Positions 55,395-55,910 of a stretch of 64,000 nt of DNA are shown in pieces. Under the pieces are notes generated by a model. The model was not told the origin of the DNA and did not search any database. It was given only the letters and a program-made list of their open reading frames with translations. The position numbers and the translations under genes are program-made. The stretch is from Klebsiella phage Sealy: the sequence record PQ337358.1; one strand, written 5' to 3'. Numbering within the stretch: the first letter of the stretch is position 1; each line of letters starts with the position of its first letter.

Positions 55395-55423
55395 TTGCAA
55401 TCTCGCCACGATTTTTATATAAT
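55395..55423 (+). promoter_or_regulatory. strong sigma70 promoter in front of a 480-nt ORF-free leader
   Basis: TTGCAA-17-TATAAT. Confidence 0.6.
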
Positions 55424-55910
55424 ATATTCATAGGTTGAGAGAAATGATGTGAGTTACAAAACTGACATAATTCCTCTCATTCACTTCCGAGCATACAGAA
55501 CAGTCCGGCTGCTACATGCTTGGTTGGGTTTGGCTTATTGGAAAATTGATTCCGAACGGAATTATAGATAATTGATCTAGAATGCGGGTAAGAGAGGTTG
55601 GCATCGCGAGGCTCTCAGATATTTGTTCGTTAGTCATGTGGAGCAAATAGCACCGCGGTCTGAAATGACCAAGAAGTGAAGCTGTAAGTAGCAACGTACC
55701 TCTGCGCAATAGCGACGAATAGGGGTCAACCACATGGAGCTTAGCGGCGATTACATGCTGTGTGGGAGTTGTGCGAAGCGGCCAGTTCTAGCAATGAGGA
55801 AGTGACCACCCCTCCATCTATAAGGAAATTTGTTGAGTCAGTGGACTTTTAAGCTGTTCTATCCTTGATAGTTCGAGATCGCTTTATTCTTCAACATAGG
55901 AGAAAACGTA

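Follow-up and report, generated by a model that had tools for sequence, protein, structure and literature searches.

A probable large folded leader RNA upstream of the D2/obp helicase gene in enterobacterial T5-like phages

RNase III cuts near-continuous double-stranded stems, among them those of the lambda N, pnp and rnc leaders, the sites R0.3 to R1.3 of T7 early RNA and the stalks of ribosomal RNA (rRNA). ColE1 RNA II, the structured leaders of T4 genes 32 and 43 and the phage-borne RNAs GOLLD and ROOL are further points of comparison for the region described here. This region belongs to Klebsiella phage Sealy (sequence record PQ337358.1), a T5-like phage of the genus Sugarlandvirus (family Demerecviridae), and lies between a putative early promoter and the gene for a helicase of 929 amino acids (aa), obp, the homologue of T5 D2. 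The whole stretch that was analysed, 64,000 nucleotides (nt) long, is called the window, and all positions refer to it unless another locus is named.

We consider it very probable, on the basis of comparative structure models, that positions 55430-55871 are under selection to fold into one large RNA. In the Klebsiella phage, the folded RNA is the 5′ untranslated leader of the D2/obp helicase messenger RNA (mRNA). An earlier note, written from the letters of the window alone, had proposed a structured functional leader here rather than a spacer. This proposal is now strongly supported, both by conservation and by compensatory base changes.

The leader fold

The structure model for the window was built from a comparison with phage Eos and from constrained folding. 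On a tool-made alignment of the Klebsiella and Eos leaders, 97.9% of the 121 pairs in the model are kept and 32 are changed on both sides; the controls give 0-4 such double changes with slid partners and 8.1 +/- 2.5 in shuffles. Judged by the fit to Eos, the model shows 31 double changes and 28 broken pairs, versus 11 and 45 for the minimum free energy (MFE) fold. The predicted elements are the following.

55437-55478, + strand: P1, the 5′-terminal hairpin of 16 pairs with loop ACAA, an inverted repeat present in the MFE fold of every lineage
55487-55523, + strand: P2, a hairpin of 14 pairs (Eos differs on both sides in 8) with the conserved island ACAGAACAGTCCGGCTGC (55495-55512) that is kept across lineages
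55531-55583, + strand: 5′ arm of the rod, which includes both palindromes of the earlier note and pairs with 55785-55795 and 55816-55856
55584-55784, + strand: apical domain closed by the rod, with several hairpins, the junction helix GCAAC/GUUGU, P-a and P-b (helices 7-14), and the islands GUUCGUUA, GAAA and AGUAGC
55730-55765, + strand: P-b, the hairpin CCACAUGG/CUGUGUGG around a small hairpin, GCU-UAGC-GGC, with the invariant CUUAGCGG at 55740-55747
55785-55856, + strand: 3′ arm of the rod (55785-55795 and 55816-55856), interrupted by the branch hairpin H7 at 55796-55814, GAGG/CCUC
55859-55871, + strand: H8, the hairpin CUAUC-CUU-GAUAG between the rod and the ribosome-binding site, with CCAUC/GAUGG in Eos (both sides changed) and CUAUUC/GAAUAG in T5

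The rod is a long-range pairing of leader nt ~100-155 with nt ~355-430. It is made up of the pairings UGGCUUA/UAAGCUG, AUUGAUUC/GAGUCAGU, UUAUAGAU/AUCUAUAA, AUUG/CAAU and CUAGAAU/GUUCUAG, and its helices 3-6 (34 pairs, 11 changed on both sides) are 97-100% kept in Eos. The earlier note had pointed to two short palindromes in this part of the leader. Both are present, ATTCCGAACGGAAT at 55549-55562 and TAGATAATTGATCTA at 55565-55579, but the second had been misquoted, with C instead of A as its first base, and five-base arms such as these are at chance level. In the model that survives the Eos comparison their bases lie in the 5′ arm of the rod and pair with 55786-55841, and the pairings that cover them (helices 4-6) show compensating changes relative to Eos. 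Both palindromes are most likely better explained as strands of the modelled rod, with local palindromic hairpins as possible alternative folds. The P2 island and the invariant motif are each followed by one copy of a 27-nt direct repeat of 70% identity (55506-55532 and 55745-55771, respectively). No such repeat is evident in Eos, and it probably arose by chance.

The hairpins vary in the same manner. Two pairs of P1 are changed on both sides between Klebsiella and Eos, and its stem sequences differ in the Proteus phages and in loci L030, L031 and L037 (L numbers denote loci of the comparison). The outer stem of P-b has its own sequence in each of 10 lineages and pairs in all of them (12 of 14 leaders by constrained folds; the Eos and L031 equivalents were read from sequence). 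The pair that closes the small hairpin inside P-b may be GC, AU or CG, and the enclosed CUUAGCGG never changes. The stem of H7 covaries as well, reading UGGGG/CCCCA in Eos, AUAUGA/UCAUAU in T5, AAGGGG/CCCCUU in L018 and UAAGGG/CCCUUA in L031. H8 has no T-run after it, so it is not a terminator.

A further comparison starts from T5. The structure predicted for the T5 leader alone was mapped onto a MAFFT alignment of 20 leaders of the T5/Eps7 type and the L018 type, in which the central 310 nt are ~45% identical. With this structure 87% of cells are paired and 24 double changes are seen, versus 39-49% and 3-8 when it is slid. The rod, P-b and H7 helices are 78-96% paired in the alignment, and in P-b (helix 13 of the T5-derived model) 4 of 9 pairs are changed on both sides. 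The inner apical domain is the least well resolved part, as the L018 type does not retain helices 7-12 of the T5-derived model.

Single-sequence MFE folds of six lineages (T5, the L018 type, L030, L031, L037 and Proteus) follow a common plan despite little shared central sequence. The plan consists of a 5′-terminal hairpin, a long-range helix of 19-27 pairs that joins nt ~95-170 to a segment 60-130 nt past the invariant motif, and P-b. The long-range helix has 27 pairs in L030 and L037, 25 in Proteus, 24 in L031 and 19 in T5; the Klebsiella rod has 34 pairs in five segments. As modelled, the distant segments form a stem of at least about 20 base pairs, as expected of an RNase III processing stalk.

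Which molecule folds? In every lineage, + strand folds are 15-55 kcal/mol better than − strand folds, with many pairs being G-U. The GC content of the leader equals or exceeds that of neighbouring genes, and is above that of the adjacent gene in Proteus, pVp-1 and L037. The strand bias and the GC content together indicate that the transcript, or the + strand, is the folding species.

Other approaches gave less. Whole-arm duplex energies are no better than shuffled in Klebsiella, Eos, L037 and Proteus and are significant only in T5, L018, L030 and L031; this is a weak test, because wide windows give random duplexes of similar energy. With identities of 35-50%, a MAFFT alignment of all lineages is unreliable, and RNAalifold found almost nothing on it. 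A 47-position covariance model of P-b from the T5 group proved too specific, as it missed Klebsiella, Eos, L031 and Proteus, and is no test of the Vibrio phages.

Conservation and setting of the locus

The same terminator, promoter and leader of 470-760 nt, free of open reading frames (ORFs), precede obp in every enterobacterial T5-like lineage examined. These lineages are Klebsiella, Eos, T5, Eps7, phiR201, the L018 type, L030 and L031 (the 74% lineages), L037/L046 (the 63% lineage) and the Proteus phages. An alignment of homologous intergenic regions, as the earlier note had suggested, gives a promoter followed by a conserved leader in all of them, not a gene that abuts the promoter. Among the Klebsiella T5-like phages of the genus Sugarlandvirus the leader region is at least 95% identical in ~80 phages; taken by itself, the leader reaches at least 99% identity in 76 records, and with its flanks 95-99% in 69; the match to Klebsiella phage vB_KpnS_Riker_ER52 is 100% over the leader region.

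Between lineages, pairwise identity is 35-66% for the leader versus 63-82% for the helicase protein. The conserved islands are the promoter, ACGGAACAGUNNGGCUGCCCCA, GUUCGUUA, GAAA, AGUAGC, GCUUAGCGGC, a hairpin before the ribosome-binding site, and AACAnAGGAG. Among 2.9 million viral contigs (IMG/VR), only T5-like ones carry the first island in its T5-type form, with one occurrence per genome, and the P2 island is single-copy in the window. The motif CTTAGCGG is unchanged in 40 of 40 distinct leaders. Its distance from the promoter is nearly constant at 316-363 nt, except in four phages with a 100-nt insertion, and anything from 170 to 410 nt separates it from the ATG. Within the window, this invariant loop motif has no further copy and no complement above chance.

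The insertion of ~100 nt lies right after the 5′ hairpin of the leader in phiR201 (L002:2706-2805), and also in L024, L033 and L044. It appears to move independently of the remaining leader, because it is found in phages of both central-domain types. In Proteus phage 1 (L006:1240-2000; also L034 and L036) the leader is ~290 nt longer and holds a second, degenerate copy of the motif, GCCUUAGCCGUG.

The RNA is not tied to the helicase mRNA in the same way in all lineages. A second promoter stands just before obp in Proteus (TTGACA-18-TATAAT, 12/12, 68 nt before obp) and in L030 and L031 (10/12). Sequence scans of Klebsiella, Eos, T5, L018 and L037 find no internal promoter, T-run or terminator between the fold and obp, so in these phages the leader is a true 5′ untranslated region. 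The suggestion of the earlier note that the region might encode a separate small RNA fares less well than its core idea: the Klebsiella phage has no terminator or second promoter before the gene, but three other lineages do have a second promoter.

In Vibrio phage D420, a terminator-like hairpin ~70 nt before obp closes a promoter-led gap of 650 nt (L009:1236-1860). The four ORFs of 30-56 codons annotated in this gap are probably false calls, made where the phage has a non-coding RNA. Promoter-led gaps of 580-830 nt before obp, some with conserved hairpins, are also seen in many Vibrio and marine relatives. An nhmmer profile of the leader found no similarity at Vibrio and metagenome obp loci; the Vibrio and marine leaders are without the rod, and homology is unproven. 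In the first ~160 nt past the promoter, Vibrio phages pVp-1 (L007) and Chester (L008) have three hairpins in common, namely AUUGAUUC/GAGUCGAU, GGGGUAG/CUACCCC and an 18-pair stem. These hairpins, common to two genera, suggest that Vibrio phages carry a different conserved leader RNA at the same position. In the lineage with a 52%-identical helicase (L042, L052 and L075), the place of the leader is taken by no more than a short, AT-rich, divergent intergenic region, and in some relatives at 33% identity obp abuts the upstream ORF. A metagenome scan added 13 loci and no new lineage with the motif.

The T5 and L018 types illustrate how unevenly the locus can diverge. At both ends the leader is essentially the same in the two (nt 1-100 and the last 85 nt), and over the central 310 nt it is ~45% identical; in the helicase, residues 1-560 are ~90% and residues 561-929 ~100% identical. 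Two sharply different central RNA alleles are thus found in phages that are otherwise 90-100% identical (L004 versus L018; alignment columns 104-425). The mosaic breakpoints fall at leader nt ~100 and helicase residue ~560, and L040 combines a T5-type centre with an L018-type 3′ tail. The mosaic tract could be a specificity module of an origin or operator. It could equally be one old recombination patch, with an RNA that evolves at near-neutral speed under a pairing constraint.

Such mosaicism, along with the high divergence between lineages, is what might be expected if the region were a DNA-level element (a protein-binding site, nick site or recombination hotspot) or a tolerated spacer with no function as RNA. 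Compensatory changes on one strand are unexpected both for a spacer and for duplex-DNA sites, and we regard this explanation as very unlikely. A T5 nick site can be rejected: the T5 nick consensus is 5′-R/GCGCRGG-3′ (PMC3517423), the invariant motif GCTTAGCGGC does not fit it, and the leader contains no GCGCRGG.

The distance from the -10 hexamer to the ATG at 55911 is 487 nt. The statement of the earlier note that 480 nt here lack any ORF is roughly right, but short ORFs do exist, the largest being two on the + strand (40 aa and 30 aa) and one on the − strand (73 aa). Record PP738788 annotates + strand ORFs at 55449-55571 and 55760-55852, and the − strand ORF is 43% identical to an Eos ORF over 61 aa, which could be taken to mean that one or more of the three encode small proteins. 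The ORFs have GTG or TTG starts without a Shine-Dalgarno sequence, however, and their lengths and frames differ in every lineage. Their similarity is limited to islands conserved at the nucleotide level, and a DNA identity of 66% leads to an amino-acid identity of ~40% in any frame. No conserved reading frame, length or start signal was found on either strand across the other lineages compared; a conserved protein-coding frame in the spacer was one of the findings that the earlier note had named as refuting its proposal. T5 records annotate nothing in the ~470 nt after the promoter. We see hardly any room for a small-protein explanation, and annotators should drop the ORF calls made in the leader in some records, which are spurious.

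The leader is flanked by the following features.

55323-55351, + strand: intrinsic-terminator-like hairpin (55323-55347) with a T-run, which ends an upstream operon of two DUF7415 genes
55395-55429, + strand: putative T5-type early promoter, with -35 TTGCAA at 55395-55400, a 17-nt spacer, -10 TATAAT at 55418-55423 and discriminator ATATT at 55424-55428
55898-55913, + strand: Shine-Dalgarno AGGAG (55898-55902) and helicase ATG (55911), read from the sequence; AACAnAGGAG is kept in all lineages aligned
55911-58700, + strand: obp, the gene for the 929-aa SF2 helicase, by homology the counterpart of T5 D2 / ‘replication origin binding protein’

Sequence reading and a promoter scan both agree with the earlier note on TTGCAA-17-TATAAT at 55395-55423, in its hexamers, spacing and coordinates. 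The site has 10 of 12 consensus positions and is the top promoter-like site in 53-60 kb. Promoter-like sites in 53-60 kb are at chance level (9 found versus 12.3 expected), so the hexamers alone are weak proof of a promoter. The promoter is credible because it lies 48 nt past a terminator-like hairpin, has the ATATT discriminator and aligns base for base with T5P32. This last site is annotated in T5 as ‘putative early promoter T5P32’ and is also preceded by an annotated terminator. The ATATT discriminator is present in all identified T5 early promoters (PMC7472727), and the promoter hexamers are identical in six lineages in the alignment. With its sigma-70 hexamers, 17-nt spacing, A/T-rich upstream region and ATATT, the site has the sequence features of a T5 early promoter, and we infer that transcription starts at about 55430.

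The upstream terminator hairpin (55323-55347) has 11 pairs, 6 of them GC, followed by TTTCTATGTT. It shows compensating changes in Eos, T5, Eps7 and phiR201 in the alignment and is an annotated terminator in T5 records. Directly upstream of it are two tandem paralogues of DUF7415 / PHROG 2502 (54519-54920 and 54917-55312, with a 4-nt overlap), which some records mislabel as tail proteins. Elsewhere in the window, at 30329-39391 on the − strand, is a cluster of 24 transfer RNA (tRNA) genes that covers most amino acids and is typical of T5-like phages.

The helicase is 82% identical to its homologue in Eos, 78% to the T5 type, 66% to the Proteus phages and 33-45% to the Vibrio phages. It matches PHROG 3712 over its full length, Pfam Herpes_ori_bp at aa 395-534 only, and herpesvirus OBP structures in PDB at aa 391-533 only. 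The sole Pfam and PDB likeness of the protein is thus the SF2 helicase core (aa 391-534) common to herpesvirus UL9. The T5 D2 protein is a bipolar helicase with a proposed role in replication initiation (PMC3632103).

Candidate roles of the RNA

What might a folded RNA of this size do in front of a helicase gene? The reading that we find most likely, though we hold it with somewhat less than even confidence, is that of a cis-acting leader that is processed and controls how strongly the helicase operon is expressed. In it, the rod would act as a processing stalk of the RNase III type, offering a near-continuous double-stranded substrate. Once RNase III had cut the rod, the 430 nt at the 5′ end would be released, and the helicase mRNA would begin immediately upstream of H8 with its ribosome-binding site free. 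P1 may protect the 5′ end of the unprocessed transcript. The invariant CUUAGCGG hairpin may be recognised by a protein through which processing or stability is tuned; this protein could come from the phage or the host, and the helicase itself is a candidate. Jointly, the elements of the leader would determine when the helicase operon is expressed and at what dose.

A number of points weigh against this processed cis-acting leader. The Klebsiella rod is segmented (7, 8, 8, 4 and 7 pairs plus internal loops), rather than the 24-27 continuous pairs of L030, L031, L037 and Proteus. A translational operator would not usually leave the ribosome-binding site untouched, as the conserved structure does here, and a fold of 430 nt far exceeds what the control of stability or processing needs. 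The structural evidence for the Klebsiella phage has its own limits: the five rod helices were chosen with Eos in view, so the Klebsiella-Eos covariation count is not fully blind there; the comparative model lies 6 kcal/mol above the MFE; and the MFE z-score of only -1.1 to -1.3 is no evidence by itself. Finally, in Proteus, L030 and L031 (by an internal promoter) and in D420 (by a terminator) the RNA is uncoupled from the helicase mRNA, an arrangement that speaks for a function of the RNA's own.

This uncoupling is central to a rival explanation, in which the apical domain with the invariant hairpin (~250-330 nt) is excised as a stable non-coding RNA (ncRNA) that acts in trans early in infection, as a scaffold, decoy or regulator. 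The rod would again be a processing stalk, here as a long stem that closes a conserved multi-helix domain, and the position before the helicase would be mere gene order. The constant spacing from promoter to motif, next to the variable spacing from motif to ATG, fits such a unit, as do the large size of the fold and its distance from the ribosome-binding site. Within the window, however, no terminator or processing signal can be demonstrated and no target or partner is apparent, and the loop motif has no extra copy or complement above chance. As gene order is kept throughout the family, synteny argues neither for nor against this explanation. On balance we judge an excised ncRNA to be unlikely, though a contender to be taken seriously.

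Two other forms of control in cis that the earlier note had offered, an attenuator and an RNA thermometer, did not hold up. An attenuator would need an intrinsic terminator, but there is none in 55424-55910, and the Klebsiella and Eos leaders have no run of 5 or more T. A riboswitch expression platform was likewise rejected, as there is no terminator-like site between 55424 and 55910. An RNA thermometer is contradicted by the position of the Shine-Dalgarno sequence (55898-55902), which lies ~30 nt beyond the last conserved helix, H8 (ending at 55871), and outside all covarying helices. Only a weak stem of 5 pairs, AACAU/AUGUU, can touch the helicase start codon: it would join the conserved AACA(U), which stands right before the Shine-Dalgarno sequence, to the (A)UGUU of the start codon (55893-55915) and place the Shine-Dalgarno sequence in the loop; T5 has CAACACA/UGUUGUG.

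The earlier note had also raised a cis-acting replication element or a transcription-activated origin. The DNA-level signs that were tested lend this no support. There are no iterons or repeated initiator-binding sites, only two-copy direct repeats at chance level, in the leader. The scan found no promoter-like site on the − strand between 55424 and 55910, and hence no antisense promoter of the ColE1 RNA I type. The leader is GC-balanced, as the earlier note had said (0.44 versus 0.45 for the window), and contains no AT-rich unwinding element. The cumulative GC-skew minimum is at 46-50 kb, 5-9 kb from the leader, where gene orientation flips, and not at 55.4 kb. The region of the minimum, ~46000-51400, coincides with the switch from − to + genes and with the divergent intergenic region 51140-51448 before nrdD. 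A paper on T5-like phages likewise places the skew-derived origin at the point of divergent transcription (PMC5519627).

An origin could involve the RNA in other ways. The transcript might serve as a pre-primer or form an R-loop, on the pattern of ColE1 RNA II or the T4 origins oriF and oriG, or the displaced + strand might be a site for helicase loading, so that the leader marks the origin of the T5 family. The leader adjoins the helicase proposed for T5 replication initiation (PMC3632103) and comprises ~450 nt of untranslated, structured RNA behind a strong promoter. The T5 locus lies mid-genome, at 59.0-59.5 kb of 121.75 kb. Bourguignon et al. in 1976 reportedly placed the first T5 origin near the middle of the molecule. 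The divergence that joins the centre of the leader (~45%) to helicase residues 1-560 (90%), but not to 561-929 (~100%), resembles a specificity module of origin and initiator; the alternative of one old recombination patch would explain the tract as well. Besides the absence of iterons, AT-rich stretch and antisense promoter, and the displaced skew minimum, the short AT-rich intergenic region of L042, L052 and L075 speaks against an origin RNA, and R-loop origins of the T4 type do not require selection for intramolecular pairing. Overall, we think an origin-related RNA improbable. In its most specific form, in which the leader is the primary origin RNA of the T5 family, loaded by the UL9-like D2 helicase, and the fast-evolving centre and the N-terminal half of the helicase form a specificity module, the idea is slightly more doubtful still.

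Comparison with known RNAs

Rfam 15 comprises 4227 models, including riboswitches, T-box, 6S, RNase P, transfer-messenger RNA (tmRNA), GOLLD, ROOL, retron msr and Y-RNA-like families. The Rfam scan that the earlier note had called for was run and gave no family match to the leader. At the gathering threshold only tRNAs are found in the whole window, and at E <= 10 there are zero matches in 55250-56000. Seven related loci at E <= 1 gave one chance match, at 23 bits versus a threshold of 114 bits, outside the enterobacterial leaders. ARAGORN finds no tRNA or tmRNA in the leader. The loop UAGCG appears similar to the priming motif of retrons and to the CS-6 element found in single-strand origins of plasmids; the retron msr model of Rfam does not match the leader. 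We found no description of the leader RNA in literature searches or in the T5 records inspected. It is a new RNA family, of a generally familiar kind (a structured phage leader or ncRNA) and of unusual size and layout.

T5 ranks among the classic model phages, and candidates for therapy and biocontrol are widely drawn from its relatives. If the fold is functional, it adds a new large phage RNA family of ~440 nt, with a stalk and an apical domain that holds an 8-nt invariant loop motif inside an mRNA leader. The leader RNA would also be an experimental handle on the timing and dosing of T5-like replication genes, or on where and how replication starts.

Among the systems named at the outset, RNase III-processed leaders share with this one a long untranslated 5′ region and an imperfect double-stranded stem before a free ribosome-binding site, here in an early operon of a phage. 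Theirs are hairpins of 40-220 nt without a large conserved apical domain, whereas here ~330 nt are enclosed, with an invariant loop motif. The processing stalks of 16S and 23S rRNA are alike in that distant flanks pair into a long stem around a folded RNA, the stem drifting in sequence while the pairing stays. In our case the enclosed RNA is ~200 nt, is unrelated to rRNA and lies within an mRNA leader.

ColE1 RNA II is similarly an untranslated, highly folded transcript from a constitutive promoter ~500 nt upstream, in which structure is important and which is tied to replication functions. Unlike ColE1, the Klebsiella locus has no detectable antisense promoter of the RNA I type, and the RNA is followed by a helicase gene, not by an origin. 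The pseudoknot leader of T4 gene 32 and the operator hairpin of gene 43 are likewise structured leaders of replication genes, and the small invariant hairpin described here could bind a protein as well. Those operators measure 20-60 nt and overlap or abut the ribosome-binding site, whereas the invariant hairpin stands 150 nt upstream of it. GOLLD and ROOL, lastly, resemble the leader in being phage-borne, several hundred nt long and supported by covariation. They differ from it as free-standing genes that are often near tRNAs, and the Klebsiella leader does not match their Rfam models even at E <= 10; the RNA before obp is embedded in the 5′ untranslated leader of a replication gene.

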